NCBI GenBank assembly: GCA_029258835.1
Contig: JAPDJY010000048.1
Coordinates: forward strand, 1 to 63,312
From: Thermoproteota archaeon
GTDB taxonomy: Archaea; Asgardarchaeota; Jordiarchaeia; Jordiarchaeales; Freyrarchaeaceae
DNA length: 63,312 bases
Reading direction: 5' to 3'
The notes beneath the pieces are model-generated. The model saw only the letters and a program-made list of their open reading frames with translations, was not told the origin of the DNA and searched no databases. Below are positions 10,307 to 53,340 of this stretch, one piece after another; position 1 is the stretch's first letter; each line of letters begins with the position of its first letter. Both the position numbers and the translations under genes were made by a program.

Positions 10307-10643
10307 TTAAACCCTGACGAGCTGTATCTCTATCGTGGAGACGTTACGCTGATCCTCCCCGCTTCCAATGGTTTCAGTGCCTATCTTTATCTCTCCAAGT
10401 TTAACGGAGTCCGGCATGAATCTCTGCCTCACAATCTCCACCACGTCAACAGCCTTAGAAATCGCTCTTCCTCGGGCTACAACCCTAACTTCATCTGCTC
10501 CTTGACTTAATTGCATGACACACGCAAGGACATAGCTCACTCGACGTAAGGTAGAGCTTATCATGAAGCCTACCCTACTTTGTCGGTTTTTTCCCTACGA
10601 AAACCATATTCTCAGTTGTGGAGCCCTTTTTCGAACCGGACAT
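10307..10643 (-). CDS. albA: DNA/RNA-binding protein Alba, two exons (10643-10580 and 10539-10307), 98 aa after splicing
   Basis: Exon 1 [21 protein letters not shown] plus exon 2 (M)[10 protein letters not shown]...[14 protein letters not shown]...NVSTIEIQL matches the Alba consensus GKKPxMxYVLA. Confidence 0.9.
10540..10579 (-). other. Bulge-helix-bulge intron (40 nt) in alba mRNA
   Basis: CGAC-AA^A-GTAGGGTAG-GCTT-catgat-AAGC-T-CTACCTTAC-GTCG-AG^T; excision gives CCG ACA ATG AGC TAT. Confidence 0.85.
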
Positions 10644-10919
10644 TTAACCGCCCTCCCTTCCACTGTTTAAAAACCGTAGCCTTTATTTTTGAATAAAACT
10701 GTCTCATAAAAACTTTTAAACTTTCCTACAAGCCACACCATACTCCTTAGAATGGGAGCTAGAGCACTGCATACCATTTAGTACGTTGGCATGTAATACA
10801 TGAGAAGAAATTTAAACATTGAAAATCAGTTTCCGCTTCCAAAGTGAAAACTCTTAAAATTCCTTTTTCACCATTCAATTATCACATATAAAAATGGTAA
10901 TTTTAATATATTAGCTTGG

Positions 10920-11459
10920 GTGAGGAAAAGAGTTGAACACTGCCGGTTGAGGTTAGGCGAAATGGGTAAGCGCATACCTCCTAGTTTACCTGCCGTTTTA
11001 ATTATTCTTCTAGTTGAAGCAGCTTATGCAGTTTTAATCGCTATGTCTTCCCTTATCTTATACGCGTCGACTGAAGGGTTGAAGACTGCCATAATAGCGG
11101 TGCTCCCATTATCTAAATCTATAAGCGATCTCGGTCTGGCAACGTTCATGTACACCTCAGCATGCAGTTTTTCACTGATGTTAACCCTAAGAATCGCTTT
11201 TCTCACTTCCCTTGCAGTTTTCAACGTTCTATTTATTCGGTGGATCCTCATGTTCTGGGAGCACGCCTATCAAGGAGTTTTAACTCGCTCTCTTACGGTA
11301 ATTCTTTTCGCCCTCCTCATCATGCCCAACACCGTCGCTGCATTTCTCATTCTTACAAGCTTACTTCTCACTATAATTTTCTTTCAGAGTGCAGAGTTAA
11401 GGAAACTCTTTGTGGAAGCGAAAGGAGAAGAGGAGAGAAGGAGAGGTGGTGAAGAATGA
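10920..11459 (+). CDS. Hypothetical membrane protein (~4 TM)
   Basis: Hydrophobic stretches; overlaps the next start codon. Confidence 0.65.
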   Translation: MRKRVEHCRLRLGEMGKRIPPSLPAVLIILLVEAAYAVLIAMSSLILYASTEGLKTAIIAVLPLSKSISDLGLATFMYTSACSFSLMLTLRIAFLTSLAVFNVLFIRWILMFWEHAYQGVLTRSLTVILFALLIMPNTVAAFLILTSLLLTIIFFQSAELRKLFVEAKGEEERRRGGEE

Positions 11460-12016
11460 ATTACAAGTATGGAGGATTAGAAATTATAACTCTAACAGGA
11501 GACATAACCAAGCTTGAAGTGGATGCCATAGTTAACGCGGCCAATAGTCACCTCTGGATGGGAGGCGGCGTGGCAGGGGCGCTTAAAAGGGTAGGCGGAG
11601 CCGAGATCGAAGAGGACGCTAGAAAGAAGGCTCCGAAAAACGAGAAGGGTGAACCGTTCGTCCCCGTTGGTGAAGCAATCGCCTCAACTGCAGGGCGGCT
11701 TAAGGCGAAGTATGTAATTCATGCGCCGACCATGGAGAAGCCCGCCATGAGGACTACCCCCGAAAAGGTCGAGAAAGCGATGAGAGCCGCCCTTAAATGC
11801 GCAGAAAGCCTAAACGTTGGAAGCCTAGCAGTACCCGCATTAGGGACAGGAGTTGGCGGCGTCCCCAAGGATGAGGCAGCTAAGAGAATGGTTAAAGCAC
11901 TGATTGAGCATGTACACTCCGGAACAAAACTGAAAAAAGTGTTCCTGTGCGACATAAGCGAGTCTCAGGTAAAGGCGTTTGACGAAGCCTTAACGTCTCT
12001 TAACGTTCAGCGTTAA
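11456..12016 (+). CDS. Macro domain (ADP-ribose-binding / deacylase) protein
   Basis: GDITK..DAIVNAAN..MGGGVAGAL, VIHAPT, PALGTGVGG. Confidence 0.93.
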   Translation: MNYKYGGLEIITLTGDITKLEVDAIVNAANSHLWMGGGVAGALKRVGGAEIEEDARKKAPKNEKGEPFVPVGEAIASTAGRLKAKYVIHAPTMEKPAMRTTPEKVEKAMRAALKCAESLNVGSLAVPALGTGVGGVPKDEAAKRMVKALIEHVHSGTKLKKVFLCDISESQVKAFDEALTSLNVQR

Positions 12017-12294
12017 CCTGCAGCCTTGGCTTCCTTAGCCTGCATTCCCATCCAAATTTTTATTCTTTTGTTCCCTGCCACCAGCTTTATTAATCCCTTT
12101 CTCTCAAGGTCTCGCAGGATGCTCTTAACTACACTGACCCTTAATCCGTACTTGTCTGACACCTCGCTAGGTGTTATAACCTTCATCCTTGGGATCTCCT
12201 TTTCCATGGTCTCAAGGATTGTCTCGTCGATTAGTATGTTGCGCACCTCTTTCTCCACAACCTTCTCCTGAGCTTTCTTCATCTTCTTTCCCAT
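12013..12294 (-). CDS. rps25e: Ribosomal protein eS25
   Basis: KVITPSEVSDKYGLRVSVVKSILRDLERKGLIKLV; RBS GGAGG before ATG 12294. Confidence 0.88.
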   Translation of the reverse strand: MGKKMKKAQEKVVEKEVRNILIDETILETMEKEIPRMKVITPSEVSDKYGLRVSVVKSILRDLERKGLIKLVAGNKRIKIWMGMQAKEAKAAG

Positions 12295-12462
12295 AATTAA
12301 CCTCCAAAATCGTTTGAACGCGAGCAAATAAGAGTTCAACCTAGCCTTTACAGCCACTCCTCAACCGGAATAGTTAAATTTTTCTCTCCAATTTAAAGCG
12401 TTACCTTCACAATCCCTGATTGAAAGGAGGGCAACCCGCTAATGGCCCCACCAACCATTCGT

Positions 12463-13272
12463 TTAAGCGTTGAGCAGCAGTTTATCCAAGTTTGCTCTCT
12501 CCGACATGCGTACCGCCCTTATACGACGAGGGTACTCCAAGTTTATGCGCTTAACCAGCACATCCTCCTGCCCTCTCTTTCCGATAGTGACCTTTAATCT
12601 TGCAGGGCTCTCAAACCCTTCCTGAAAGCCTACAAGTATGCTCTCTCCAGGCCATTCCAATCCTCTTTCAAAACTAACCGAGTTTACTCCAACTATGGGG
12701 ATCCTGTTCTCGAGGGCTCTCGCCTTAACGTATATGTGCCAGTTCTCTATCCCTGCTGATGGTATGAATGCAGGATTGAATATTATGTCTGCCCCCTTAA
12801 GTGTTAGTATCCTGGCGACCTCAGGGAATGCTAGGTCAAAGCAAACAGTCATCCCAACCATTCCAAACTCCGTCCTGCAGGGTTCTAAGCGTGAACCAGG
12901 CTTGAAGAAGTACTTCTCAATACTGTAAAGATGAATTTTCCTGTGGACTCCTATGCATTCCCCCGACCTGTCAAAGAGACGCGACACATTGTAGATTTCT
13001 CCCCCCTCCCTCTCCCACAAGGAGCCGCCAAGCACGTAGACCCCGTACTCCTCAGCGATCCTCTCCAAAGCCTTCACGCTCGGCCCATCAGGCTTCTCGG
13101 CATCATCAGGCGGGTTTCCCTCCTTGAGGTTCCACTTTTCAGGGAGGCATATCACGTCCACCTCCGTCCTTTTAAGTAAGCCGTCAACTATTTCTGAAAC
13201 CCGCCTGATGTTCTCCTCCTTAGTTTCAGCTTTTGCAAGCTGAATGGCTGCAACAAGAACCTCTTTCCTCAA
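12463..13272 (-). CDS. Carbon-nitrogen hydrolase (nitrilase family)
   Basis: E-K-C triad motifs LPE, HRKIHL, VCFDLAFPE; ARALEN. Confidence 0.92.
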   Translation of the reverse strand: MRKEVLVAAIQLAKAETKEENIRRVSEIVDGLLKRTEVDVICLPEKWNLKEGNPPDDAEKPDGPSVKALERIAEEYGVYVLGGSLWEREGGEIYNVSRLFDRSGECIGVHRKIHLYSIEKYFFKPGSRLEPCRTEFGMVGMTVCFDLAFPEVARILTLKGADIIFNPAFIPSAGIENWHIYVKARALENRIPIVGVNSVSFERGLEWPGESILVGFQEGFESPARLKVTIGKRGQEDVLVKRINLEYPRRIRAVRMSERANLDKLLLNA

Positions 13273-13364
13273 CGTTTATCTCCTCCATCAGAAAGGCAAA
13301 ATACATTTTACTTTTTTAATCATTGATTATATCCGTTACTCTAAGGCAGTGGAGGCGGCGGATC

Positions 13365-14792
13365 GTGGAAGACACCCTCACCAAACTGGTCGATTATGGA
13401 CTTAAGCTTGGAGCGGAGTACGTGGAAGTTCGATGCGAAGAACTATTTGAAACAACGATGCACATTGAAGACGAACGGGTTGAATCGGTAAGGCAGGGAG
13501 TTGACCGAGGTTTTTCTATTCGCGTGCTAGCACGTGGGGCGTGGGGGTTCGCCTCAACTAACAGCTCAGACCGCCTACAGGATGCATGTAAGAGTGCGGT
13601 TAAGATGGCTTCAGCTGTAAGCAGTAGCGTCAGAGAGAAGGTAGAATTAGCTGAGGTAAGGACGTACCATGACAGAGTCATGGTTAAACCCGACGTGAAT
13701 CCTGCGGACATAGGAGTGGACGAGAAAATACGCCTGTTTCTGGAAGCTAGTGAATCTGCCTTTAAAACAGACAGCAGGGTTAAGAGCTTCACATTCGACT
13801 ACGCCGATATCTACGGAAAAAAATGGTACTTTAACAGTGACGGGGCAGAACTTACCCAAGACGTCCTCTACGTTTGGGGTAGAGCCTTAGCCACAGCTAG
13901 AGAAGGAGACATTTACGTCTCCTACAGGGAGGAGTTAGGTTCCACAGCTGGATTCAAGCTATGGCAGGAGACACCTCCACAAGAGTTAGGAGAAAAAATG
14001 GCTGGCTACCTGTTGGAGCAGTTGGGCGCCGCCCCTCCGAAAGGAGGAGCTTTTCCTGTGGTTCTTGGGCCTAACGTCACGGGTGTACTGGCCCATGAAG
14101 CCTTTGGACATTTAGCCGAGGCAGACTTGACGCTTGCTGGAGGACTGTTATTATCCAAGCTCGGGGACAAAGTGGCTTCACCTTTAGTCACCATATGCGA
14201 TGATGGAACCATTAAGAACGGGTTCGGAAGCTTCAAGTATGATGATGAAGGGGTGAGGACGCAGAAAACCATAATAGTGAAGGAAGGTCGCGTCGTCGGG
14301 TTAATGTATGACCGTGAAAGAGCAGCGAAAATACGGAAAATGTCGAGGAGACTCGGGTTGGAGCGAGAGGAGGAGTTTGGCATGGAGCCAACCGGTAACG
14401 CAAGAGCTGAAAGCTTTAGGGTTCCACCCCTCATAAGGATGAGAAATACCTACTTTGAGCCTGGCGACTGGCGGCTTGAAGAAATGGTAGAGGACTTGTC
14501 CTTCGGCTACCTCATGGAAAGCTTTAGAGGTGGCCAAGCTAACCTAGATGGTACGTTCCAAGTTGGTATTCAAAGAGCGTATGAGATAGTTAATGGTGAG
14601 GTGGGCCGTCCAGTTAGGAATGCTTCGATTAGTGGAAACACCCTTGAAACACTCCTACACGTGGACGCCGTCGGGCGAGACTTCGCGCTTAACGCAGGTA
14701 GGTGCGGCAAAGGACAAACGGTATTCGTTGGTGATGGCGGTCCTCATATCAGATGTAGGCAGATGATTGTGGGAGGAGCTAAAATTGAGTGA
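13365..14792 (+). CDS. tldD: TldD metalloprotease
   Basis: HEAFGHLAEAD, YDDEGV, IRMRNTYF, GRCGKGQ. Confidence 0.92.
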   Translation: MEDTLTKLVDYGLKLGAEYVEVRCEELFETTMHIEDERVESVRQGVDRGFSIRVLARGAWGFASTNSSDRLQDACKSAVKMASAVSSSVREKVELAEVRTYHDRVMVKPDVNPADIGVDEKIRLFLEASESAFKTDSRVKSFTFDYADIYGKKWYFNSDGAELTQDVLYVWGRALATAREGDIYVSYREELGSTAGFKLWQETPPQELGEKMAGYLLEQLGAAPPKGGAFPVVLGPNVTGVLAHEAFGHLAEADLTLAGGLLLSKLGDKVASPLVTICDDGTIKNGFGSFKYDDEGVRTQKTIIVKEGRVVGLMYDRERAAKIRKMSRRLGLEREEEFGMEPTGNARAESFRVPPLIRMRNTYFEPGDWRLEEMVEDLSFGYLMESFRGGQANLDGTFQVGIQRAYEIVNGEVGRPVRNASISGNTLETLLHVDAVGRDFALNAGRCGKGQTVFVGDGGPHIRCRQMIVGGAKIE

Positions 14793-16140
14793 CCTTGCAG
14801 CTTTGGTAGAGTGGATGGTAGATTACGCTGAAAGACATGGTGCTCATGAAGCAGAAGTCTATTTTAGCTATAGTAGAGAGTTAGAAGTTGAGATCTCATT
14901 AGGGCAGTTGTCATCCTGTCATCTCTCTGACGAGTACGGTGTAGGGTTAAGGGTTATCGTCGACGGGGCAGTGGGCTTCAGTTTTTCTAATAGTTTAGAA
15001 AGACGTATGCTTGAAGTTAGTGTAGACCGCGCCGTGAAGGCTGCTAAGGCAAGCAAGCCTGATAAGCGATGGACCGGGCTGCCGGACCCAAGAAAGCCTA
15101 CATTTGTCTCCGGTGTTTTTGATAGGAGGATACGCAACATTTCCGAAGAGGAGCTTGTAACCATAGCTAGAACAATGCTTGATGCAGCAGAGGACTACAG
15201 CCATAAGGTGACTGCTTACTGGGGTGTTGCCGCAGCAGGATACGGCGAGGTATTCATAGCTAATAGTCAAGGGTTAAATGTTCACGGTGAAGGGACGTCC
15301 ATTGGTTGCGCCCTCGGAACAGTGGCTAAGGAAGGCAGCCTTATCTCGCCTGAGTGCAGCGACTTCGACTTCAAGAGAACATACGAAGTTAACCCTGAAA
15401 AAGTGGGGGAAACCGCCTCCCAGCTAGCTGTGAACTCGCTGAAGCGCATAGAGGTGAGCTCCGGGGTTTACCCCGTGGTGCTGGCTTACCCTGCCCTACA
15501 CGCTTTAATAGAGTATACCTTCTTGCAGACTATAACGGGGGACAACGTTCTTAGAGGAAAATCTCCTTACGCTGGGAAGATCGGGGAGCAAGTATCATCC
15601 AGCATGATCAGCATAGTGGACGATGGAAGGCTTGAGGGCGGATTAAATTCTTCCCCATTCGACGGGGAAGGCGTGCCAAGCCAGAAGACAACTATTATTA
15701 AAAAGGGCACATTAAAATCTTTCCTATATGACACATATTGGGGTAGAGTGGCTGGTGCCGCATCAACAGGAAATGCTATACGTTCAAGCTACGCATCCAC
15801 TCCCAAGGTGGGGCCATCAAACCTGATCATTGAAAAAGGAAGCAGCAGCTTTGAAGATCTCATTGGGGAGATATCAAACGGGCTACTTGTTTGGGATGTT
15901 CAAGGAGCTCATTCAAGTAACCCCGAGTCAGGTGAGGTGAGCGTTGTGGCAACCCCGTGCTGGCTGATCAGGAACGGTAACATTGCGAGCCCGGTGAAGG
16001 GCCTTATGCTGGCAGATAACTTCTACGGTATGCTGAAAAGAGTGAATGGAGTTGGGGATGACGTTAAAAGCTACTCCTTCTTGGTGTCACCCTCAATACG
16101 TTTTTCCAGCGTTAAAGCCGTGAGTAAGTCTTCAGGATAG
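14785..16140 (+). CDS. pmbA: PmbA/TldE partner protein
   Basis: FDGEGVP, TGNA; lacks HExxH; adjacent to tldD. Confidence 0.9.
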   Translation: MSDLAALVEWMVDYAERHGAHEAEVYFSYSRELEVEISLGQLSSCHLSDEYGVGLRVIVDGAVGFSFSNSLERRMLEVSVDRAVKAAKASKPDKRWTGLPDPRKPTFVSGVFDRRIRNISEEELVTIARTMLDAAEDYSHKVTAYWGVAAAGYGEVFIANSQGLNVHGEGTSIGCALGTVAKEGSLISPECSDFDFKRTYEVNPEKVGETASQLAVNSLKRIEVSSGVYPVVLAYPALHALIEYTFLQTITGDNVLRGKSPYAGKIGEQVSSSMISIVDDGRLEGGLNSSPFDGEGVPSQKTTIIKKGTLKSFLYDTYWGRVAGAASTGNAIRSSYASTPKVGPSNLIIEKGSSSFEDLIGEISNGLLVWDVQGAHSSNPESGEVSVVATPCWLIRNGNIASPVKGLMLADNFYGMLKRVNGVGDDVKSYSFLVSPSIRFSSVKAVSKSSG

Positions 16141-16710
16141 CCTAGAAGCCCACTCTGAAAGCTTATTGAGCATCTCCTTCTTGGACTCGTCATCCAGCCT
16201 TCCCTCTCCCGGCATAGCTTGTAACTTTGAAATTGTGAGTGTGATCTCGGAGAAGACAGGATGATATGGAATCCTCTTCTGCAGTTCCTCCTTCAGCCTC
16301 CTCAATTCATTGATCACGTTAGAAACCTGAGGGTTCACGTTGATGCTTTCAGCAGCTTTCTTAACCATCAACGCAGCCTCTCCTTCGCCGGCCACCTCCA
16401 CAGCAGCTTCCTCAGCCTCCATCTTCCCTTCTTGCAGTTCTAACCTCGTTTCAACCTCTTTCTTGACACCACCCTCCTCAGGTACCGCCTGTTGCCCCTC
16501 TGGCGGCAAAACGGCGGGAAGCGCGGCTTTCTCAACGGCGACGGTAACACCCTCTCTCGGTGCGGGCGCCTCCCCAATAATCCTGTTAATGCTTGAGTAC
16601 GCCTTCAGCAGACTCCTCCTAAGCTTTATTAAGTTGGCGACAAGCTCCCTTATCAGTTTAGCCGAATTATCCAGTTCTTGAATGATTTCCTTAAGATCGC
16701 CTAATTCCAT
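16132..16710 (-). CDS. Hypothetical coiled-coil protein with a C-terminal helical bundle (weak Vps28-CTD resemblance)
   Basis: RBS GGGTGA; N-terminal heptads, a low-complexity linker and a helical C-terminus. Confidence 0.7.
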   Translation of the reverse strand: MELGDLKEIIQELDNSAKLIRELVANLIKLRRSLLKAYSSINRIIGEAPAPREGVTVAVEKAALPAVLPPEGQQAVPEEGGVKKEVETRLELQEGKMEAEEAAVEVAGEGEAALMVKKAAESINVNPQVSNVINELRRLKEELQKRIPYHPVFSEITLTISKLQAMPGEGRLDDESKKEMLNKLSEWASRLS

Positions 16711-16764
16711 CTCACCCTCTCCAAGAAACCATACTCCTATCCAAGTTAAACTAACATCTACAAC

Positions 16765-16792
16765 ATATATTGGTCTTAATATATTGGTCTTA
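16765..16792. repeat. Perfect 14-bp tandem duplication
   Basis: ATATATTGGTCTTA x2 in a divergent intergenic region. Confidence 0.85.
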
Positions 16793-16948
16793 TCTTTTTC
16801 TTCTCCCTGTCGGACTCAGAGCATCACTCTGATCTCTTGCAAATCACCGTGGAGCATCTGTCCCGGAATACCGCCTCTCTAACACAGTCGAAACACTAAA
16901 ATTCACCTTTCAGCAACAGGTTCTTTACTACGGAAAGGGGGTTAAACA

Positions 16949-17803
16949 TTGAACAAGATAGCTAAATGGAGCATCATACTGATCGGCTCGTTCTTCTTAA
17001 TATCGCTAGCGGCAAACTTTGGAGGCTTTGGGGGCTGGTTTGACCTTCTTATCCAGGGGCCATACATCACTTTAATGTTCTATGGTTTTTACAGAGTGCT
17101 CTCGGAGGGCACGTCTAAAACTGGGAAGCGAGGAATTCTTTTAGACCTTCTGCTCATACTTTCCTTGATGATCTTCTTCGTAGGTTACGGAATGCACTTC
17201 ACAGCCAACCACATAGAAGTTCTGATGGCTGAAAACGAGTTTATGCTCTTCATAACCCCCAAGGTTGCCACGAACCCGGAAGCCATCATTTACCTCTATT
17301 CCCTTTACACGCCGACATACTACTTCGACGAGATGCTAGGCCACCAGCTTATTTACACAGGGTTCTTCGGACTGATGATCGGCGGCATCCTGCTTGAATC
17401 TTGGTTCAGAGGAGAAGAAGAGCTTTCAAGAACCGACTACATGGCAGTTACAACCTCATCCATATTATTCACGGTGATAATAGTACTGGCTACGGTTGAA
17501 GGACAGTACGCTATACACGCGTTAGTTCTCACGGTGCTCATGGCAGCGGTTTTACTCGCATACTTTAAAGGAGGAATAGTGAAAAGACCATTCTGCCTCT
17601 TCATGCTGCTAACCTCCATCATGTCTGCAGTGTACATCTCCCTCCTGGCTGCCATGTACTTTGACGTTATAAGCGCAACCCTGCATGGCCTCTTAGGCAG
17701 GATACCGCAATTCTCGGAGCCAGAAAGAATACTTCGCCAGTTCATATTCTTGTCAGGAGTATTCGGTGACGAAGTAAAACTTCTCCTCTCCTTCATCCTT
17801 TAA
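16949..17803 (+). CDS. Hypothetical polytopic membrane protein
   Basis: ~7 hydrophobic helices; His motifs GMHFTANH and DEMLGH suggest metal binding. Confidence 0.75.
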   Translation: MNKIAKWSIILIGSFFLISLAANFGGFGGWFDLLIQGPYITLMFYGFYRVLSEGTSKTGKRGILLDLLLILSLMIFFVGYGMHFTANHIEVLMAENEFMLFITPKVATNPEAIIYLYSLYTPTYYFDEMLGHQLIYTGFFGLMIGGILLESWFRGEEELSRTDYMAVTTSSILFTVIIVLATVEGQYAIHALVLTVLMAAVLLAYFKGGIVKRPFCLFMLLTSIMSAVYISLLAAMYFDVISATLHGLLGRIPQFSEPERILRQFIFLSGVFGDEVKLLLSFIL

Positions 17804-17892
17804 CTCTCTTTTTTTATTTGGAAACGTTAAAACGGTAAATCATTTAATTAGCAAGGTGCCAAAATGGTTTTTTAGGGCTGAGGCGTGGAAGA

Positions 17893-18645
17893 ATGCTAAA
17901 ATACGCTATTAGACTTGCAAGACTTCTTCCTCGAGAGGCTAGGATGGTATATGCTATCCTAGGTTGCCGTCCAGGTAAGGTTGAAAAGAGGGTTCTTCTG
18001 ACAGCAACCAAAATTGCAACACAAAGAGCAGTGCAAATGTTGGAGAGAGTAGAGGAGAGAGGAGAAACGTTTCGTGGCTACTATGAAGGCGTACCCGTTT
18101 CTGTTGTGCCGACAGGAATTGGCTGCCCCGCAACGGCAGTTGTTGTCGAAGCACTTCAAATGGCACGTGTCCGAGCTATTGTAAGAAGCGATTTTGCAGG
18201 CGCCCTCAGGCGGAACATAAGGCTGGGCGATTTACTAGTAGCCGATAAAGCCTACACAGGGGACGGCACAACCAAGCATTACGTTAAGGAGGGCTTTGTG
18301 GAAGGTGACAGAAGCATAACACAACTACTTTCTAAGTGTGCTTCTGAGAGAAACATTAGATTTCACGTTGGACATGTATGGACGACCGATGCGCTTTTCA
18401 GGGAGACCAAGGAGTTATTAGAGGAAGCCATAGGCTTGGAGTGTATAGGCATCGACATGGAAACATCAGCCCTATTCACGGTCGGCGGAATACACGGGAT
18501 CAAATGTGGCTCTATCATGTCGGTTAGCGACAATCCCATAGCTGGGAAACACCTCTTCAACTCTATTACTAAGAAAGAGGTCTTTGAAGGATTGGATCTT
18601 GCAGTGAGCGTAGGGCTTGAAGCCTTGTCAAGAATAAGTATTTGA
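17893..18645 (+). CDS. Nucleoside phosphorylase (PNP/UDP family)
   Basis: TGIGCPAT, VWTTDALFRET, IDMETSALF, VSD. Confidence 0.88.
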   Translation: MLKYAIRLARLLPREARMVYAILGCRPGKVEKRVLLTATKIATQRAVQMLERVEERGETFRGYYEGVPVSVVPTGIGCPATAVVVEALQMARVRAIVRSDFAGALRRNIRLGDLLVADKAYTGDGTTKHYVKEGFVEGDRSITQLLSKCASERNIRFHVGHVWTTDALFRETKELLEEAIGLECIGIDMETSALFTVGGIHGIKCGSIMSVSDNPIAGKHLFNSITKKEVFEGLDLAVSVGLEALSRISI

Positions 18646-19835
18646 GGGATATACCCTTGAAATGTGACGTTTTAGTTGTCGGCGGCGGTCCTGCCGGATT
18701 AATATGTGCTGAGCGTCTCGCTAAGGCAGGGTTGAGTGTAGTGGTAGCCGACAAGAACGAGACTCCTAACAAGGATAAGCCGTGTGGAGGCATGCTGACC
18801 GAGAGGGCCTTAAGAGAATTTAGGATAAGCCCCAAGGTGGTTGAAAGGGAAATCTATGGCGTTCTCGTGGCGCTAAGAGAGGGATGCTTTCACGTCGACT
18901 ATAATGAGAGGGTAGGAGGAAACGTGGATCGAAGTGGTTTAGGGCGTTATCTCGCTGAAAGGGTTGAGGAGGCTGGAGGCACTATTGTAACCAAGGAGAG
19001 AATATTAAATGTTTACGTAGATGACGACTACGTTAAAGGCACCGGGAAAAGAGATTACATATCCGAGTTCGTCGTTTTTGCTGATGGAGTACATTCCCTT
19101 GCAAGAAGAGTAATGGGTTGGCGGTGGCGGAAAGATCAGCTTGGACTTTGCGTCCAGTACTTAGTGAGGATGAACGAGGAGAGGGTGAATGAAGTTTTCG
19201 GATATAGAAATCATTTCTATTATGGTAGCGATATTTCACCATTCGGTTATGGATGGATGTTCCCAAGGAGAAACGTGGTAGTCATTGGTGTAGGAGCCCT
19301 ACTGTCAAAGGTCACCTCCCCCCTAAAGAAATACTTAGACTATCTTCTTAGTAAGCATCCTTTATCCTCCCCTAAACTGAGAGGAGGAGAAATTCTACGT
19401 TTTGAAGCAGCCTTAGTTCCCCTCTCCGGAATAATGGGTAAGATCTCTGGGTGGAGGACTATCGTTGTTGGCGACGCTGCTGGGGCGGTGTCCTCAATTA
19501 CGGGGGAGGGAATGTATTATGGAATGAAAAGCGGCTTAATTGGAGCCGAGGTGGTGGTTAAAGCGTATGAGGAGGAAAACCCCTCAGAGAAGCGCATGGA
19601 ACAGTACGACAGGCGGCTTAAAGCAGAGATTGGAAGCGACATGAAGTGGAGCTTATGGCTTAGAAACTTTTTCATGGAAAGAAGAAGCGGCGTAGTGAAT
19701 ACTTCATCCTCCAGCCTACAAAGAGTAATTTCTGACTTAATTATTGGACGCAAAAGTTGCAAGAAGGCGATTATGGACGCGTTGCCTCTCGTCGCACTAA
19801 ACCTGATAAAAAGGAAAATTATTGGAAACCGCTAA
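18642..19835 (+). CDS. Geranylgeranyl reductase family flavoprotein
   Basis: GGGPAG, KPCGG, GYGWMFP, VGDAAG...GEGM. Confidence 0.9.
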   Translation: MRDIPLKCDVLVVGGGPAGLICAERLAKAGLSVVVADKNETPNKDKPCGGMLTERALREFRISPKVVEREIYGVLVALREGCFHVDYNERVGGNVDRSGLGRYLAERVEEAGGTIVTKERILNVYVDDDYVKGTGKRDYISEFVVFADGVHSLARRVMGWRWRKDQLGLCVQYLVRMNEERVNEVFGYRNHFYYGSDISPFGYGWMFPRRNVVVIGVGALLSKVTSPLKKYLDYLLSKHPLSSPKLRGGEILRFEAALVPLSGIMGKISGWRTIVVGDAAGAVSSITGEGMYYGMKSGLIGAEVVVKAYEEENPSEKRMEQYDRRLKAEIGSDMKWSLWLRNFFMERRSGVVNTSSSSLQRVISDLIIGRKSCKKAIMDALPLVALNLIKRKIIGNR

Positions 19836-19866
19836 CTTTTATTAGCCCTCCATCTATAAGGGTTCA

Positions 19867-19933
19867 TGCGGATGAGGGAAACTGACCTGGACGGAGCCTT
19901 CAGGCCATGATGAAATGCATCTCCCCCGACGCA
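19867..19933 (+). ncRNA. Candidate box C/D sRNA
   Basis: CGGATGA - 12 nt - TGGA ... ATGATGA - 12 nt - CCGA, with TGCG/CGCA ends and a TATA-like TTTTATTA ~25 nt upstream. Confidence 0.5.
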
Positions 19934-19981
19934 CTGTCACCCACCACTTTCAAGGGGGTTAACATCTACGAGGGTTTCACG

Positions 19982-20257
19982 GTGAAGGTCAAGTTAAGGC
20001 TTTTCCCGTCACTAGCAAGGGCCCTCAACACTTCTATCTTGGAGGTAAAGGTTAACGATGGGGGCACGGTCAGGGATGTGCTCCTAGCTGCTTTTAAAGA
20101 GCAACGTTTACGTGACATGATAATTGAAGGCGAGAAAATCGCACCCGGGGTACTCGTCCTGCTTAACGACAAAGATGTAAGGCTACTTCGAGGATTGGAA
20201 ACCATTGTACGTGATGGAGACGTGATAACCCTCTTAGCAGTTACTCATGGTGGATAG
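19982..20257 (+). CDS. MoaD/SAMP ubiquitin-like sulfur carrier
   Basis: Beta-grasp pattern, C-terminal GG; GTG start after RBS. Confidence 0.88.
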   Translation: MKVKLRLFPSLARALNTSILEVKVNDGGTVRDVLLAAFKEQRLRDMIIEGEKIAPGVLVLLNDKDVRLLRGLETIVRDGDVITLLAVTHGG

Positions 20258-20355
20258 CCGCGCTCGCCGATCCTACAAAATTTAAATAGGAAAACCCTTC
20301 TTCTGGGAATTAAATCTTTAAATTGCCTTTATCCTGTTTCTCTGGAGGGTCTAAG

Positions 20356-20790: not shown

Positions 20791-20817
20791 CTCCCTTCTT
20801 CTTTCCCTTTGGAAGGA

Positions 20818-46319: not shown

Positions 46320-46372
46320 CTAATACGCCTCCCTTTCAGAGGAAAATTCTGAAAGAAGAAATGATGTTGCCG

Positions 46373-46984
46373 TTAAAGCTCTTCCTTAAGCTTCTTTATA
46401 TCCTTCTCAAGCTCTGCGATTTTACCTGCAGGAACAGAAGGAAGCTTCACACCCGTTTCAACACCTATCTCTTGATCTATCTCTGAAAGGGTTTCAGCTA
46501 CCTCCTTTGAGGTCACATCGGTTGAAACAGTCATCCTCTCAAATCCAGCTTCCGTCACATCTTGAGCTATATCAAACTCCTGCATTGAAGCATCGATCTC
46601 ATCTACAAGCTGCGAAATGTCCGGGAGATTAACCGTGCTTTTTAACCCTTCCAATGCTGCCCTAATACCAGAGAGAGTGCTTGCGACCTCGTAAACGGAC
46701 TGGCTCTGCCGTAGTTTAACAACCATCCCGTGAATTCTAAGCCTATAAGAATCAGTAGCTAAAGCCCATTTTTGATATCTCAGGTAATGCTCAGCATACA
46801 TCTTCGCCGCCTCATTATTACCCATCATGCGGTAACGCTTCGCTTCCTCCCTGTTCTTCCTAGCCTCCCTTTCCAACTGTTTCTTATGGTATTCAAGTTT
46901 CCTCGTGAACACTTCAAGCTTGAAAATCACGTCTTTAAGTTTTGGGCCACCCTTAAGCCAGTTTATGAACTTCCTTAGCGACAT
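46373..46984 (-). CDS. ESCRT-III Snf7-family protein (Vps2/24/46-like)
   Basis: GNNEAAKMYAE, LPDISQLVDE, tail LPSVP..ELEKDIKKLK; RBS GGTGG. Confidence 0.85.
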   Translation of the reverse strand: MSLRKFINWLKGGPKLKDVIFKLEVFTRKLEYHKKQLEREARKNREEAKRYRMMGNNEAAKMYAEHYLRYQKWALATDSYRLRIHGMVVKLRQSQSVYEVASTLSGIRAALEGLKSTVNLPDISQLVDEIDASMQEFDIAQDVTEAGFERMTVSTDVTSKEVAETLSEIDQEIGVETGVKLPSVPAGKIAELEKDIKKLKEEL

Positions 46985-47085
46985 AGAAACCACCAGCATG
47001 TCCTTCCATACAAAGATTGGAAAGCCTAGGTTATAACACTTTCCTAAAAGGCATCGAACAAGTTAGCATTTTTACATTTGGTTGC

Positions 47086-47682
47086 TCATTTCACCTCTAC
47101 TACTTCTCCCCCTTTTCTATCCAATTCGTCATGAACCATAACAATACAGTGGCTTCCTAAATACCTCTTCGGCCCTAAACTTACCTTGAAGGCACCTAGC
47201 TTCTCCAGCAACCTCTCGCTACGAGGAGGAAGCCCCAAGTGATCCCCAAGCACAAATAACACGTCCTTTCTATGAGGAAAATTAACCATCCTTATCGGTT
47301 TCCCACTCTCATGAAGATAGTATACCTCCGCTTTTCGCCTAACCTCAGACACCGCTTCAATGAAGCTTTTCCTTTCAACATTGAATCCCTTTATTTTTTC
47401 CCCTTTAAGTAGTTTTTTTAAAGTAAGTGCCAGCTGGAGCTCTGACCCTGAAATGTTATCGATTTCTGCGCCATCCACCTTTAACGTTAAGGGAGGGGCA
47501 GGAGGCCCCTCTAGAACAGCGTAAAATACGGTGTTCAACCGAACCCCCCCGCCAAACTTCAAAGCAGCTATTACGCATCTGCAAACAATATCAAGTCGCC
47601 CAGAGGTCCCTGGAAGGTCTTTAATGTTAAAGCTGTTCGAGGTACATGCTTTACGTGCTTCCATAATGAAAATGCGTCTCAT
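47086..47682 (-). CDS. trmY: tRNA (pseudouridine54-N1)-methyltransferase
   Basis: DLPGTSGRLDIVCRC, FVLGDHLG, SLGP..SHCI (SPOUT fold). Confidence 0.88.
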   Translation of the reverse strand: MRRIFIMEARKACTSNSFNIKDLPGTSGRLDIVCRCVIAALKFGGGVRLNTVFYAVLEGPPAPPLTLKVDGAEIDNISGSELQLALTLKKLLKGEKIKGFNVERKSFIEAVSEVRRKAEVYYLHESGKPIRMVNFPHRKDVLFVLGDHLGLPPRSERLLEKLGAFKVSLGPKRYLGSHCIVMVHDELDRKGGEVVEVK

Positions 47683-47685
47683 ACA

Positions 47686-48510
47686 TTACCCCCAAACAGC
47701 CAAGTAGAACATATAGATTCCAATACAAACCATAAAAAACCCGAAAAGCCGTCGAAGACCCCGTGCAGTAAATTTCCCAGAAATCCTCGAGCCTACTTGG
47801 CCGCCTAACACTGCTCCTGCTCCCATGGCTAATGCGTAAACAGTGTTTACATGTCCAAGCATAGCATGCTCGGTAATTCCAACCAATGCGGTTAATAAGA
47901 TCATGAAACAGGATGTCGCGACTGCAATATGAATTGGAACTCCTAAAAGGGTGAGAAGTGGAACCTTAAGTATTCCTCCTCCTATTCCGAGGAAACCTGA
48001 CGCCATGCCAGCAATGAAGCATCCTCCGAAAGCGATTGGAAGATTAATACTATATTTGAGAACTCTACCCTCGCCATCCTCTAGTTGCCTTCTCAGGTGG
48101 ACGCTGTGTAGCCAGCTTATTCTAGCGGAAACTTCCCTCTTTACGCCTAAAATCATTCCTGTACCAACGATGATTAAGCCAGCAGCAAAGACCCCCTCTA
48201 ACATAAAGGATTTTATTATGCCTGTTAGGTAGGCTCCTATAAATGCTCCTGGCATGGTGGCTCCTTCAAGTATCAACCCTAGCACCAAGTCAACTTTTCC
48301 CTGGCGGCAGTAGCTTAAAGTAGCCGAAGAGGCTGTGAATGCTATTACACATAGGCTTGTCCCAACAGCATTCTTCATGTTTACCCCCCCAATAAGATGG
48401 AGAACCGGAACGTTTAAGAATCCGCCTCCTACACCAAGAAGCGACGCTACAACACCTACCAGTAAGCCAATAATACTTAATACAATAACTAAAATCATGG
48501 TCGCTTCCAC
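47686..48510 (-). CDS. TauE/SafE (TSUP) family membrane transporter
   Basis: Duplicated LGVGGG / LGIGGG...VP...AVGTS/AVATS motifs. Confidence 0.9.
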   Translation of the reverse strand: MEATMILVIVLSIIGLLVGVVASLLGVGGGFLNVPVLHLIGGVNMKNAVGTSLCVIAFTASSATLSYCRQGKVDLVLGLILEGATMPGAFIGAYLTGIIKSFMLEGVFAAGLIIVGTGMILGVKREVSARISWLHSVHLRRQLEDGEGRVLKYSINLPIAFGGCFIAGMASGFLGIGGGILKVPLLTLLGVPIHIAVATSCFMILLTALVGITEHAMLGHVNTVYALAMGAGAVLGGQVGSRISGKFTARGLRRLFGFFMVCIGIYMFYLAVWG

Positions 48511-48623
48511 CCGTCCTTCTTTTTAGCAACTGAAAAGAGGTTATCATCCAGTAAGCAAAAACATAAATAACCCTTTCCTTCTTTAAGGAGGTATTGACCT
48601 TAATTGTGAAGAAGGTGTGTACA

Positions 48624-48902
48624 TTGCCGAAAAAACGTAAAAGCAGGGGGAGAGCAAAAGGTTCTGCTGGAAGAAAAGAACTTATACCCTGTGCTTTCTG
48701 CGGTAAATTAATCCCCCGAGACAAAGCGAAAAAAGTGACAAGGTATACCACGTTGGTGGATCCAGTAATTGCCCGTGAACTGCGAAAACAGGGAGCGTAC
48801 ATTCCACGGGAAAAAGTCGTCCTTCACTACTGTATCTCTTGCGGCATTCATAGAGGCCTAATTAAAGTTCGCGCCGAAGCCGAGAGGAAAAGTAGACGCT
48901 AA
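48624..48902 (+). CDS. rps26e: Ribosomal protein eS26
   Basis: PKKRKSRGR, C..CG..IPRDKA, YCISCGIH. Confidence 0.94.
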   Translation: MPKKRKSRGRAKGSAGRKELIPCAFCGKLIPRDKAKKVTRYTTLVDPVIARELRKQGAYIPREKVVLHYCISCGIHRGLIKVRAEAERKSRR

Positions 48903-48912
48903 GGGAGATCGG

Positions 48913-49869
48913 TTGGCGAGAAAATACGAGGTAACGATTATAGGACACGTATGTAACGACTCGATTATCACTCCAAGTGGCCTACGGCGTGCTAAAGGGG
49001 GACCCCCGCTTTATGGTGGACTAACTGCCTGTCGGTTGGGGGTTAGAGTTGCCGTAGTTTCAAAAGTAGGCTCAGCAAAAGATTTACGTGATTTCTCCTC
49101 TCTATTTAGAAGGTATGGCATCTCCCCCTATATCTTGCTAGGCAAGGGAAAAACCACTACCTTTGAAATAGCTTATAGTGATGAAGGACGTACGATAAAA
49201 TTATCTTCCAACGCTGGTGAAATACTCTTCGAAGAAATACCCAAGGAAGCCCTTAACACGTCATCTGTCTTAATAAGCCCGGTTGCAAAAGAAATTAGCT
49301 ATAACACTGTAAAAAGTTTTTTCCGATATTTGAAACGAAGGAGAGCCTTGCTCTCAGCTGACTTGCAAGGCTTCACTAGGTGCTTCCTTAGGGATGGTCG
49401 TCTCACTTTCAAACCCCCAAAAGGAGACCTTCTAAAGTTTTTTGATATTGTTAAGGGATCAGAAAGAGAGGTTAAAGCTGCTACAGGATGTGAAAACTTA
49501 GAGGAAGCATTAAGAAGACTCGTTGAGCAAGGCCCTAAAATCGCCATCGTCACGCTGGGTGAGCAAGGATGCATAGCTCGCTGTAGTAACTCAATTTTCT
49601 ATGTTTCCCCATTAAAACCTAGATCAGTCATCGACCCGACAGGGGCCGGAGACGCGTTCATAGCGACTTTTTTAGCATACTACATTCAGTCTAAAAGCTT
49701 AGAAGAATGCTTGCGTCTTGCTTCTGCAGCAGCCACCTACATAGTTGAACGGCGCTTACCATTTGGCAACGTAACAAAAAATGAAATTGAAGAGCTTGCA
49801 AAGAACGTTAAAGTGAAAAGGAGAAACGTTGCCCCCCTTAAAAACAGTTCCCCAAACACTTCCTCGTAA
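48913..49869 (+). CDS. PfkB-family carbohydrate kinase
   Basis: KGGPP, VTLGEQG, DPTGAGDAF. Confidence 0.9.
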   Translation: MARKYEVTIIGHVCNDSIITPSGLRRAKGGPPLYGGLTACRLGVRVAVVSKVGSAKDLRDFSSLFRRYGISPYILLGKGKTTTFEIAYSDEGRTIKLSSNAGEILFEEIPKEALNTSSVLISPVAKEISYNTVKSFFRYLKRRRALLSADLQGFTRCFLRDGRLTFKPPKGDLLKFFDIVKGSEREVKAATGCENLEEALRRLVEQGPKIAIVTLGEQGCIARCSNSIFYVSPLKPRSVIDPTGAGDAFIATFLAYYIQSKSLEECLRLASAAATYIVERRLPFGNVTKNEIEELAKNVKVKRRNVAPLKNSSPNTSS

Positions 49870-49962
49870 ATCTTCCCTTACTGAACTTCCTCACGTTTTA
49901 TTATAACTTTTTAAATGAATAGCCTCATTATTTCCTCTTAAAGAACGGCAGGTGTCAAAGCT

Positions 49963-50253
49963 TTGATTTGTGTTGAAGAGTTTTACGTCGAAGGCAAACC
50001 CGTAATAGGGCTAAAAGTGAACCTGACCCCTGCACCCTTCCTTATGATTGTCTGTCAGAAGGGGGTTCTCTCATGCGGGCTCTTTAACGTGGAAGTTGCA
50101 AATAAACTTGGTACATCAGCAGCTATGGTTACAGGAGTCTCGTCTTTTAAAGACATGCTTAACGCAAAGGTGGTAAAGGCTACTGCTAAGGCAAGGGAAC
50201 TTGGCGTTACTGAAGGAATCAGTGGAAGAGAGGCGGTTTTACGGCTAACATAG
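49963..50253 (+). CDS. YunC/DUF1805 family protein
   Basis: KG.LSCG, AAMVTGVSSF.DML, LGV..G.SGREA. Confidence 0.82.
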   Translation: MICVEEFYVEGKPVIGLKVNLTPAPFLMIVCQKGVLSCGLFNVEVANKLGTSAAMVTGVSSFKDMLNAKVVKATAKARELGVTEGISGREAVLRLT

Positions 50254-50453
50254 CAATTTTCCCAAAAGGTTGTTCGAAAGGTAAACCCGCAGGCGGCCAC
50301 TCCACATGTTACACCATTCTTTTATCATGCCTTAATGTGAGGTGATGGGATCCGAGAAACGCTTAAAAACAGCATTTTCCTACACGGTAGTGTCAAGCGT
50401 TCCTTATGTTCCACCCTTCTCACACTTTAGCAGGGAAAGACGAGGTGCCCTTA

Positions 50454-51908
50454 ATGTCAAAGAAGGAGGAAGCCCCTCTCCCAGACAAGTATGATAACTT
50501 TAATGAATGGTACAATGAGATCCTACAGAAAGCCGAGCTTATAGACCTAAGATACGGCGTTAAGGGATTCATAGTTTACAGGCCGAACTCCATGACCATA
50601 ATAAGGCAGATCTACCGCCTTTTTGAGAATGAATTAGACAAGTGCGGGCATTCCCCTTGCCTTTTCCCCGTAGTGATTCCCCTTGAATTTTTCGAGAAGG
50701 AGGCACAGCACATTAAGGGCTTCCTCGAAGAAGTTTTCTGGGTAACCAAGGCAGGCGAGCACGAACTCAATAAGCCCCTAGTGTTGCGTCCCACGTCGGA
50801 GACAGCTATGTATCCTTTATACTCCCTCTGGATTCGCTCCTATAGAGACCTCCCCCTCAAATTATACCAGTCCAATGCCGTTTACAGGTATGAAACCAAG
50901 GCCACTAAACCCTTGCTTAGGGGGAGAGAGTTCCTATGGATTGAAGCTCATTGTGCCCACCGAACGAAGGAAGACGCCGAACGCCAAGTTTTAGAGGACA
51001 TGGAAATCATGAGCAGAGTCCTCCACGACATCTTAGGAATCCCTTTTCTGTTATTAGAGAGGCCTCCATGGGACAGGTTTGCAGGGGCCAATAGAACATA
51101 CGCTTTCGACGTCTTATTCCCAGATAACTCCATACTTCAAATAGCAACCACACATATTCTAGGTGAAAACTTCTCTAAGGCCTTCGAGATAATGTTTAAA
51201 GATGAGGATGGAAAGCTCAAATATGTTCAGCAAACATGTTTTGGGATAGGTATTTCAAGGATCCTAGCTACCCTGATTAGCGTCCATGGCGACGAGTACG
51301 GAATGGTCCTCCCATTTGATATCGCCCCATTTCAGGTGGTAATAGTCCCCATTCTGTTTAAGGAAAGCGGTGGGCCTGTCATGGACAAATGTAAGGAAAT
51401 ACGTAAGCGTCTTTGTGAGAGAGGTTATAGAGTCATACTTGACGATTCCGATGATCGTCCAGGTGCAAAATTTTACAAGTGGGAGCTCTTAGGGGTGCCT
51501 GTCAGGGTAGAGGTGGGGCCAAGAGACCTTGAAAAAGGGGTTGTCACCCTTTTTAGGCGTGATACACGTGAAAGGCTTATCGTTGAGGATGGAATGCTTG
51601 AAGGAAAGATCGAAGAGCTACGATCCGACATTTTAAGGGTTTTGAGGAGGCGAGGTGAAGCACGGTTAAAGAAGTGTCTGAAGGAGGTTAAGAATAGAAG
51701 CGAGCTTCTAGAGGTTGCGAGGAAACGAGAGGGGATAATAAGAATGGCATTTTGTGGAAGAGAGGAATGCGCTGACGAAATAAAAGCTGAAACTGGGGGT
51801 TTCGAGGTAAGAGGCATAAAGGTTGGCGAGGAAGCAGGGGAACTGGGTGTTTGTGCCGCTTGTGGGAGGTCTGCAACCCAGATTGTCTATGTAGCTAAAC
51901 CTTACTAA
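50454..51908 (+). CDS. proS: Proline--tRNA ligase (archaeal/eukaryotic type)
   Basis: LRPTSET, YRYETK..PLLRGREFLW, C-terminal AKPY. Confidence 0.95.
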   Translation: MSKKEEAPLPDKYDNFNEWYNEILQKAELIDLRYGVKGFIVYRPNSMTIIRQIYRLFENELDKCGHSPCLFPVVIPLEFFEKEAQHIKGFLEEVFWVTKAGEHELNKPLVLRPTSETAMYPLYSLWIRSYRDLPLKLYQSNAVYRYETKATKPLLRGREFLWIEAHCAHRTKEDAERQVLEDMEIMSRVLHDILGIPFLLLERPPWDRFAGANRTYAFDVLFPDNSILQIATTHILGENFSKAFEIMFKDEDGKLKYVQQTCFGIGISRILATLISVHGDEYGMVLPFDIAPFQVVIVPILFKESGGPVMDKCKEIRKRLCERGYRVILDDSDDRPGAKFYKWELLGVPVRVEVGPRDLEKGVVTLFRRDTRERLIVEDGMLEGKIEELRSDILRVLRRRGEARLKKCLKEVKNRSELLEVARKREGIIRMAFCGREECADEIKAETGGFEVRGIKVGEEAGELGVCAACGRSATQIVYVAKPY

Positions 51909-52010
51909 TTGGCATGCAAAATCTTTTTCTTGGTCTTCCTCACTCTTTTAAGAGAAAATGCTTATTTCCTATTTGTAGGAGGCTTAATCGTCCTTGTTGG
52001 AGGGTGAACG

Positions 52011-53340
52011 TTGCTTTTCTTCGCAGATTTACACATCCACAGCAAGTATAGTAGAGCTACTAGTTCAAGCATGGACTTGCCGATCTTGTACTCATTCGCC
52101 AAGGTAAAGGGGCTTAACCTACTCGGTACAGGAGACTTTTCTCATCCTAAATGGCTTAAAGAAGTTAAAGAGCAGCTGGAGCAGATAAACGATTCTGGCT
52201 TTTACGTATTAAAAGGAAAAGGAGACGTTTACTTCCTCTTAACGAACGAGGTCAGCACTAACTTCCAGTTCGAAAAGGAAACTAAAAAGATCCACCATTT
52301 ACTCATAGTTGAAAGCTTCGACGTGGTAGATCAGGTGAACGAGGCTATTAGCAAGTACGGGGATTTAAAGTCCGATGGAAGACCTGTGTTAAACTGTACC
52401 CCCGCCGAACTCGTGGAAACCATTATGGAATTAGACCGTAACATACTGATCGTCCCAGCCCACATCTGGACGAGTTGGTTTGGCGCCCTTGGAGACAAAG
52501 GTTTTAACAGCTTAGAGGAATGCTACGGGGATCAAGTGAAGCATATTCATGCCATTGAGACGGGGCTAAGCTCCGACCCGCCGATGAACTGGAGGCTGAG
52601 CAGACTTGACAAGTACGTCCTTATAAGCAACAGTGACGCCCATAGCCCTTGGTCTTGGAGGCTAGGCAGAGAAGCAAACGTTTTCCATCTTGATACCCTT
52701 TCATTCAGGGAACTCGTAAACGCAGTGAAGAGAAAAGATAGGCAGAAAATTCTTATGACTATTGAAGTCAGCCCGGAGTACGGAAACAATCCCCTTTAGA
52801 GGGGTAGCCGTAAAATACCACTATGACGGGCATAGAGGTGACCGACAAGGACATAACGGCATAGACGTGTGCATGCATCCTAGAGAAGCCATGAAGCACC
52901 ATAACATTTGCCCTGTATGTGGGAAAAAGTTAACTATAGGAGTGCAGCATAGGGTAGAGGAACTGGCCGATAGGGAGGAGGGGTTTACCCCCAAAGATTT
53001 CATACCATTTAAGAGGCTGATCCCATTAGCTGAACTAATAGCCGTGGCAACCGGAACAGACAACCTCCACGCACGAGCGGTCAGGTTAGAGTATGAACGC
53101 CTCATAAAGACGTTCGGGAACGAGTACAAGGTTCTTCTGGAAGCACCACAGCAAGAACTCGAAAAGGTAACACATCAGAGAATAGTGCAACTTATACTTC
53201 TTAATAGAGATGGAAAAATAAAGATAAAACCCGGATTCGATGGTGTTTACGGAAAAATAATATTAGAAGACACCGTCAAGGACGAACCAGAAAAACTTTC
53301 TTGGAAAACAGGTCAACAAAGTTTAGACAGTTATTTCTAA
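52011..53340 (+). CDS. endoQ: Endonuclease Q family protein (PHP + Zn ribbon), two exons (52011-52785 and 52814-53340), 433 aa after splicing
   Basis: DLHIHSKYS, GTGD, PAHIW, ETGLSSD, SNSDAHS, LGREAN; splicing restores PEYGKYHYDGHR; CPVCG..TIGV..RVEELADR; PGFDGVYG. Confidence 0.88.
52786..52813 (+). other. Bulge-helix-bulge intron (28 nt) in endoQ mRNA
   Basis: ACGG-AA^A-caatCCCCT-ttag-AGGGGtag-CCGT-AA^A; excision gives TAC GGA AAA TAC CAC. Confidence 0.8.

Follow-up and report, generated by a model that had tools for sequence, protein, structure and literature searches.

Two interrupted genes in an Asgard archaeal contig

The DNA analysed here, referred to as the window, is a stretch of 63,312 nucleotides (nt) that forms contig C10 of a 2.72-Mb metagenome-assembled genome (MAG; G000; 91 contigs, 94.7% complete, 6% estimated contamination). 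An original prediction, made from the bare sequence, had assigned it to a probable Asgard archaeon and had pointed to two inserts in DNA-maintenance genes, identified here as those for Alba and endonuclease Q (EndoQ), which would be removed in the manner of tRNA introns. The assignment is borne out by the nearest named database relatives, which are Candidatus Jordarchaeales, Jordarchaeaceae and Freyarchaeota, and by the nearest named EndoQ, which belongs to Sifarchaeum. Both inserts were also found as described, at the two ends of the span 10307 to 53340: 40 nt in Alba and 28 nt in EndoQ share a geometry of a 4-bp helix with 3-nt bulges, and each has the 5′ bulge AAA, breaks the frame, carries an in-frame stop and lies in a conserved motif (Table 1). 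We propose that they are very probably genuine bulge-helix-bulge (BHB) introns, part of a genome-wide set in the protein-coding genes of this Jordarchaeales-type organism. In its favour stand the motif itself, its statistical excess over a control, its conservation together with compensatory changes, alleles that lack exactly the intron, and the finding that the genome encodes the enzymes.

The unspliced Alba frame ends in ...GKKPTK followed by a stop, and the remainder continues in another frame to position 10307. Since the PF01918 match in exon 2 begins only at profile position 13, the N-terminal Alba strand is assigned to exon 1. The central helix is formed by CGAC (10585-10582) and GUCG (10545-10542) over 4 bp; the bulges are AAA (10581-10579) and AGU (10541-10539), and the inner stem comprises 10 bp. 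A cut behind base 2 of each bulge restores GKKPT/MSYVLAC (the slash marks the junction), where intact homologues read GKKP.M.YVLA. The spliced protein of 98 residues aligns without gaps to an intronless orthologue at 90% identity.

For EndoQ, exon 1 matches the EndoQ structures PDB 5ZB8 and 7K30 (E 1e-42, residues 3-239). The unspliced frame reads ...EVSPEYGNNPL and then meets a stop, with the C-terminal half lying in another frame to 53340. ACGG (52780-52783) pairs with CCGU (52808-52811), and both bulges are AAA (52784-52786 and 52812-52814). The same cut rule yields EYG/KYHYDGHR, in agreement with the ...EYGKYHY.GHR of intact homologues, and a stop-free product of 433 residues.

Conservation of the sites and exact loss of the inserts

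We searched 30 relatives of G000 for the two loci. Within the order, nine relatives could be assessed for EndoQ, four from the same family and five from a second one, and in every one of them the gene is broken at the same codon; one further locus of the order, cut by a contig end, was left out. The inserts of the relatives measure 24-32 nt, and their inner sequences differ while a hairpin is kept in each. The central helix covaries (ACGG:CCGU versus AUGG:CCAU), and the exon-2 part remains open over 173-178 residues in 10 genomes although identity is only 53-73%. More distant members of the phylum carry uninterrupted EndoQ genes of 440-480 residues.

The Alba intron occupies the same site in G000 and in eight relatives, whose inserts are 27-30 nt long, and DNA contigs of two other studies cross it without interruption. 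Elsewhere in the phylum Alba has no intron, and in one genus (g2) it was lost in two of the four species. The intron-less genes of G002 and G003, two species of a sister genus, read ccgacaATGAGTTAT, exactly the junction given by the cut rule.

EndoQ is also broken in G021, a closed, 2.8-Mb, intron-rich Asgard genome, at another site (GTGD/F) and by a 54-nt BHB intron (C1 320569..320516, minus strand); the same gene was therefore invaded independently.

A genome-wide set of predicted introns

Many more introns had been expected across the genome, and a scan of BHB descriptors against controls had been suggested. As reference we chose G011, a complete, closed Asgard genome of 1.42 Mb that belongs to another class and has uninterrupted EndoQ and Alba genes, and compared its 2133 open reading frames (ORFs) with the whole of G000 by tblastn. 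A BHB was called strict when its four helix pairs all formed, both bulges began with A and the inner stem reached 3 bp or more, at the length implied by the alignment and within one codon; the mirror-image geometry of the descriptor served as control. Of the 11 frameshift-type breaks whose implied insert was 12-60 nt long, 9 had a strict BHB motif and none the mirror geometry. If EndoQ is included, whose imperfect inner stem fails the strict filter, 10 of the 11 breaks have a BHB. Five more introns emerged among in-frame inserts that carry stops. When ungapped conservation was demanded on both sides of the junction, 14 strict BHB hits stood against no mirror hit in the entire genome, and the reverse comparison with the same pipeline gave one convincing intron in G011 versus 10 in G000.

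Altogether, 20 BHB introns were verified in protein genes of G000, all by homology to this single reference, whose matches span only 30% of the genome (Table 1). Extrapolation at a uniform rate leads to roughly 60 introns or more, in agreement with the two found in 63 kb. The expectation of further cases thus held. Both hosts in the window serve DNA maintenance, as had been noted, yet as a pattern this proved a coincidence: elsewhere translation, metabolic and maturation genes are affected.

Table 1. Exons and predicted BHB introns of Alba and EndoQ in the window (contig C10), and the other introns verified in protein genes of G000. Positions refer to the contig named.
Feature	Position	Strand	Length (nt)	Remarks
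Alba exon 1	C10 10580..10643	-		ATG at 10643; encodes 21 residues and the first base of the Met codon
Alba BHB intron	C10 10540..10579	-	40	Frame-breaking, in-frame TAG; fold z-score -4.2
Alba exon 2	C10 10307..10539	-		MSYVLACV... to stop; PF01918 Alba, E 9.5e-18, profile positions 13-65
EndoQ exon 1	C10 52011..52785	+		PHP-type nuclease domain; ends ...EVSPEYG and two bases of the Lys codon
EndoQ BHB intron	C10 52786..52813	+	28	Frame-breaking, in-frame TAG
EndoQ exon 2	C10 52814..53340	+		KYHYDGHR..., zinc-finger and C-terminal domain, to stop; aligns with C-terminal halves of intact 440-480-residue homologues
ppsA intron	C1 87579..87597	+	19	
Ras-family GTPase intron	C1 101342..101311	-	32	
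dnaG intron	C1 127680..127710	+	31	
Radical SAM intron	C1 136664..136638	-	27	
ahcY intron	C4 24376..24354	-	23	
Unnamed-gene intron	C6 26548..26513	-	36	
Aconitase family intron	C6 47345..47373	+	29	
pcm intron	C8 8772..8796	+	25	
Unnamed-gene intron	C8 29502..29525	+	24	
gatE intron	C8 63575..63604	+	30	
Unnamed-gene intron	C12 61739..61713	-	27	
tes-type radical SAM intron	C19 4673..4619	-	55	
cbf5 intron	C27 11929..11955	+	27	
rpl44e intron	C27 13051..13079	+	29	
aIF2gamma intron	C27 26109..26080	-	30	
EF-1alpha intron	C27 28874..28832	-	43	
hypD intron	C36 2555..2539	-	17	
Small Cys-rich protein intron	C51 12716..12697	-	20	

At the protein level, Pfam profiles run on across the junctions (in ppsA, for instance, PPDK_N positions 2-113 are followed by 114-315), and splicing rebuilds invariant motifs such as GHVDHG/K, GTL/DP, the radical-SAM CxxxCxxC motif in CNLRCP/ICF and the CGxHxH of HypD. 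Essential elements are split in Alba (the N-terminal strand), EndoQ (YGKYHYDGH) and cbf5 (the catalytic Asp codon). The paralogous GTPases EF-1alpha and aIF2gamma are interrupted at the homologous codon, GHVDHG/K, in phase 2; their introns share the helix CGGC:GCCG and the 5′ bulge AAT and are unrelated in their inner sequences. From these alignments, the common site suggests a target-site preference. EF-1alpha is free of an intron in some relatives (P0014, P0024).

The one convincing intron of G011 lies in a protein gene near position 827312 on the plus strand, is 29 nt long and has the BHB motif CCCC AU/A ... GGGG AG/A; occurrence at a low level therefore reaches beyond the order of G000.

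Several apparent breaks were not counted as introns. Conserved genes on C39 (~21.8-23.0 kb), C40 (~2.5 kb), C23 (~22.5 kb) and C27 (~21.05 kb) have frame breaks of +/-1, +8 or +11 with no BHB; true pseudogenes, errors of assembly or some other cause could account for these. Frame-shifted 'genes' on C14 (~14.8-16.3 kb) are conserved with the reference on both strands and are probably spurious ORFs in an rRNA operon; this region was left out of the counts by eye only. Within the window, the segment 14748..14778 between two long ORFs was considered as a BHB intron and left uncounted, as it resembles an ordinary gene junction. A 71-residue zinc-ribbon-like ORF (10287..10075) and a 196-residue CxxCxxCC ORF (10068..9478) lie in the same frame on the minus strand of the window, separated by a single stop (10072..10074), and are probably two neighbouring genes.

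Motif geometry and the putative splicing enzymes

All 20 introns have four of four pairs in the central helix, with a bulge 3′ of each helix strand. Throughout the set both 3-nt bulges begin with A, also in the introns found without that criterion, and the base directly before the cut varies. Among the 19 tabulated introns, the inner helix has 3-10 bp in 18, the exception being EndoQ of G000 with a single pair adjoining the bulge. Cutting after bulge base 2 reproduces the exact sequence of intron-less alleles (Alba of G002 and G003, and the Logan contig L188 described below). The inserts span 17-55 nt and occur in all three phases, and most are not multiples of three; no Rfam family was matched anywhere in the window. 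Group I and group II introns, whose ribozyme core measures hundreds of nucleotides, and inteins, which are in-frame protein-splicing domains, were rejected on these grounds.

An EndA splicing endonuclease of a relaxed-specificity type had been expected, and the gene content agrees with this. The genome holds two PF01974 (EndA) genes. The 190-residue alpha subunit is closest to the catalytic alpha subunit of Aeropyrum pernix (3P1Z_B, E 4e-46) and carries a Tyr-His-Lys triad together with an L1/CSL-type loop region, the loop being associated with broad specificity. The second protein has the endonuclease fold with Ala in place of the catalytic His and, judged by its sequence, is beta-like. The ligase RtcB is present as well (607 bits). 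This set matches the (alpha-beta)2 EndA type with L1 loop reported for Asgard archaea (PMC5829648).

BHB tRNA introns are very abundant in Freyarchaeia, Jordiarchaeia and Atabeyarchaeia, and 92-95% of tRNA genes are reported to be interrupted in the lineage (PMC11291895; bioRxiv 10.64898/2026.10.13.758758). ARAGORN recognises only 23 tRNAs in G000, consistent with heavily interrupted tRNA genes. Mini-introns of the same style were seen in tRNA-Val genes by an ARAGORN-based check, which is noisy; applied to intron geometry, it gave 10 BHB versus 7 mirror cases and is too noisy to count.

We infer that the inserts are removed at the RNA level and that this is the work of EndA and RtcB. In the mechanism that we envisage, the last four bases of exon 1 would pair with the four intron bases before the 3′ splice site, each strand of this 4-bp helix being followed by a 3-nt bulge that starts with A. 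The intron hairpin would stack on one side of the helix and a weak exon-exon helix on the other, giving a relaxed motif. A heteromeric (alpha-beta)2 EndA would cut each bulge after its second base, whereupon RtcB would join the exons and probably circularise the intron, so that the frame and the conserved motif are restored. As reading of the unspliced message terminates inside the intron or directly behind it, splicing is predicted to be obligatory for a functional protein.

RNA-level data and database annotation

Two RNA runs were inspected for the Alba region. One metatranscriptome contig of 162 nt covers positions 10378..10539 with no mismatch and ends exactly at 10539, the predicted first base of exon 2, which is no more than a very faint hint of splicing. 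The second run contained nothing matching Alba.

Two Logan contigs bear on the intron borders. Compared over 1068 nt with L190 (SRR28530379), L188 (SRR28530378) has three mismatches and a clean deletion of 30 nt whose ends coincide with the predicted Alba borders. L190 keeps the intron and is 99.9% identical to G010, a genome of the sister family, and the two runs, which have consecutive accessions, hold the same Freyarchaeum-type population. L188 is either a spliced message or a DNA allele with exact intron loss, and the borders are confirmed both ways. No Rfam match was found on this intron-less SRR28530378 contig. A search for spliced EF-1alpha proteins among RNA-assembly entries yielded truncated 'partial' entries and, on long contigs, full-length proteins that are probably encoded by intron-less DNA alleles, and nothing else.

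The introns have evidently gone unrecognised in databases. Public records of the order (P0013, P0015, P0031, P0133-P0139) list Alba proteins of 73-85 residues, corresponding to exon 2 only, and 'partial' EF-1alpha. On L190 the gene caller changed the genetic code, reading the intron TAG as Gln and yielding an Alba of 118 residues.

Strength of the interpretation and alternative explanations

A number of observations weigh against BHB introns as the explanation. The exon-exon helix has mostly 0-3 bp in the 19 tabulated introns; most motifs are therefore relaxed, as has been described for cbf5, and not of the canonical hBHBh′ type. The inner stem of EndoQ is imperfect, with 1 bp adjoining the bulges and then an offset CCCCU/AGGGG hairpin, and genus g2 has one G-A mismatch in the EndoQ central helix. 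A scan for motif plus ORF restoration without homology produced about 1300 hits each for the true, the mirror and the wrong-frame descriptors; because adjacent genes mimic restored ORFs, it is uninformative. At the RNA level, the metatranscriptome contig at Alba exon 2 stops at the intron, and no bridged junction, spliced read or circular intron was seen in the two RNA runs, while L188 may be a DNA allele instead of mRNA. Loose filters that only asked whether an alignment spans the junction were likewise uninformative (37 versus 40, then 100 versus 74, for signal versus control). Signal and control were split only by the filter for ungapped, two-sided conservation.

The alternative that fares best accepts the introns as real and holds that their removal is in addition conditional, with EndA and RtcB acting as a regulatory switch like that of HAC1/XBP1. 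Unspliced messages would give truncated products, so that splicing efficiency would set protein output, and a mixture of forms would be compatible with the RNA contig whose end coincides with the splice site. Most of the hosts, however, have constitutive housekeeping functions and no pathway unites them, and introns were gained or lost among close relatives without visible consequence, as in Alba of genus g2 and in EF-1alpha. We found no evidence for a regulatory role, and no match to PF06479, the IRE1 RNase, in the genome (94.7% complete; the search was run without a positive control). The splice sites of G000 are in 3-nt bulges and not in hairpin loops, unlike those of the twin stem-loops with 7-nt loops of the IRE1 type. 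We therefore regard a switch as unlikely. Of the general processing or regulatory layer that had been put forward, the regulatory part has thus found no support.

Even less probable, to the point of being a poor bet, is that the inserts stay in the RNA and are skipped at translation, by ribosomal bypassing or hopping or by programmed frameshifting. A stable hairpin and an early stop in each insert would recall the bypass site of phage T4 gene 60, which has both. Take-off and landing codons do not match, though: EndoQ would have to leave from GGA and has no GGA to land on. Furthermore, the inserts of 17-55 nt occur in all three phases, every one presents the exact geometry of an EndA substrate with the cut after bulge base 2, the mirror geometry never occurs, and one of them shares its site with the cbf5 intron that has been reported to be cut by the splicing endonuclease and then ligated.

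Finally, we give almost no credence to pseudogenes or to sequencing and assembly errors, by which the halves would not be expressed as one protein: G000 is indeed a MAG of 91 contigs with 6% estimated contamination, in which a few other genes have +/-1 or +8 breaks without a BHB (for example C39 ~21.9-23.0 kb), but 9-11 genomes, assembled independently and one of them closed, are broken at the same sites by inserts that differ in length and sequence and keep the fold, downstream exons remain open under divergence, the genes hit include the single-copy core genes EF-1alpha, aIF2gamma and cbf5, and the insert is present in independent DNA runs. Taken together, shared sites, differing inserts and intron-less junctions argue decisively against both assembly error and pseudogenes, and they locate the splice sites with single-nucleotide precision. 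Genuine BHB introns remain by far the best explanation of the data.

Relation to known systems

The closest precedent is the cbf5 pre-mRNA intron of Crenarchaeota (Aeropyrum, Sulfolobales, Desulfurococcales), a short relaxed BHB within an ORF for which cleavage by the splicing endonuclease at the exon-intron junctions, followed by ligation, has been reported (Watanabe 2002; Yoshinari 2006; Yokobori 2009, PMC2738675). Like the introns described here, it is a relaxed BHB in a host with (alpha-beta)2 EndA, it is gained and lost among relatives and it is sometimes in frame. It differs in that a single gene is affected, versus at least 20 genes (an estimated 60 or more) including core translation factors in this Asgard archaeon, and its processing is backed biochemically, whereas the introns of G000 are known from sequence. 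The position is the same: in cbf5 of G000 the intron falls between the first two bases of the catalytic Asp codon, as is given for Crenarchaeota (Yokobori et al. 2009, PMC2738675). This intron is present in 11 of 11 genomes of the order and in G021, which belongs to another family, and was not seen in other relatives with a readable locus. As far as such a comparison can tell, the identical position points to an intron of great age or, alternatively, to repeated insertion in the same place.

With the BHB introns of archaeal tRNAs and rRNAs, which are processed by EndA and RtcB (Marck and Grosjean 2003), the introns of G000 share the 4-bp helix, the two 3-nt bulges, the cut rule and the size range. 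Those introns reside in structural RNAs, whereas here the hosts are translated messages with no tRNA body and a weak exon-exon helix. The HVO_1309 mRNA of Haloferax volcanii is a substrate of EndA (PMC7714728; discussed in PMC10485636) and thus another archaeal message processed by the tRNA splicing endonuclease, a likeness in the kind of processing; it is a single case, from a species with an alpha2-type enzyme.

A resemblance to IRE1-type splicing of HAC1/XBP1 had also been proposed. It holds as an analogy of chemistry only: both schemes use protein enzymes without a spliceosome, 2′,3′-cyclic phosphate and 5′-OH ends and a frame-shifting intron, and RtcB-type ligation operates in metazoan IRE1-type splicing as proposed for G000. 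The IRE1 nuclease, in contrast, is a kinase-RNase that acts on twin stem-loops under stress regulation and on one substrate, and an IRE1-type RNase domain was not found in G000 by the search without positive control mentioned above.

Archaeal mRNA splicing by EndA has been listed for cbf5 in Crenarchaeota and HVO_1309 in Haloferax, and a 2023 review (PMC10485636) expects more cases. Introns in protein genes go unmentioned in two papers on the tRNA introns of Asgard archaea (PMC11291895; bioRxiv 10.64898/2026.10.13.758758), and the literature that we searched, which does not cover all journals, contains no report of BHB introns in Asgard protein genes. The element is accordingly of a known kind, a BHB intron in mRNA; relative to this literature, its scale and the lineage are new.

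Discussion

A broader proposal can be put forward tentatively, with the odds somewhat against it: the Asgard order of the Jordarchaeales/Freyarchaeum lineage may run obligatory mRNA splicing by protein enzymes on ~2-3% of its genes, among them those for EF-1alpha, aIF2gamma, a ribosomal protein and cbf5. Dozens of ordinary genes would then need splicing in the archaeal group closest to eukaryotes. Where core translation-factor mRNAs must be spliced, and if transcription and translation are coupled as assumed, the question arises how translation of the unspliced message is avoided. If the proposal is true, cells would need splicing that outpaces ribosome loading, or else a way to hold translation off nascent transcripts, and the order would allow the idea that intron load forced transcription and translation apart to be tested in a living prokaryote.

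As long as the introns go unannotated, gene content and completeness of these lineages are systematically mis-scored. The cbf5 codon shared by Crenarchaeota and two Asgard lineages would, under the same proposal, imply an intron that predates the TACK/Asgard split or insertion that is site-specific. Gains, exact losses and the reuse of sites, as at the cbf5 Asp codon and at GHVDHG/K, can be followed among closely related genomes, making this order a tractable model for the spread of introns without a spliceosome.

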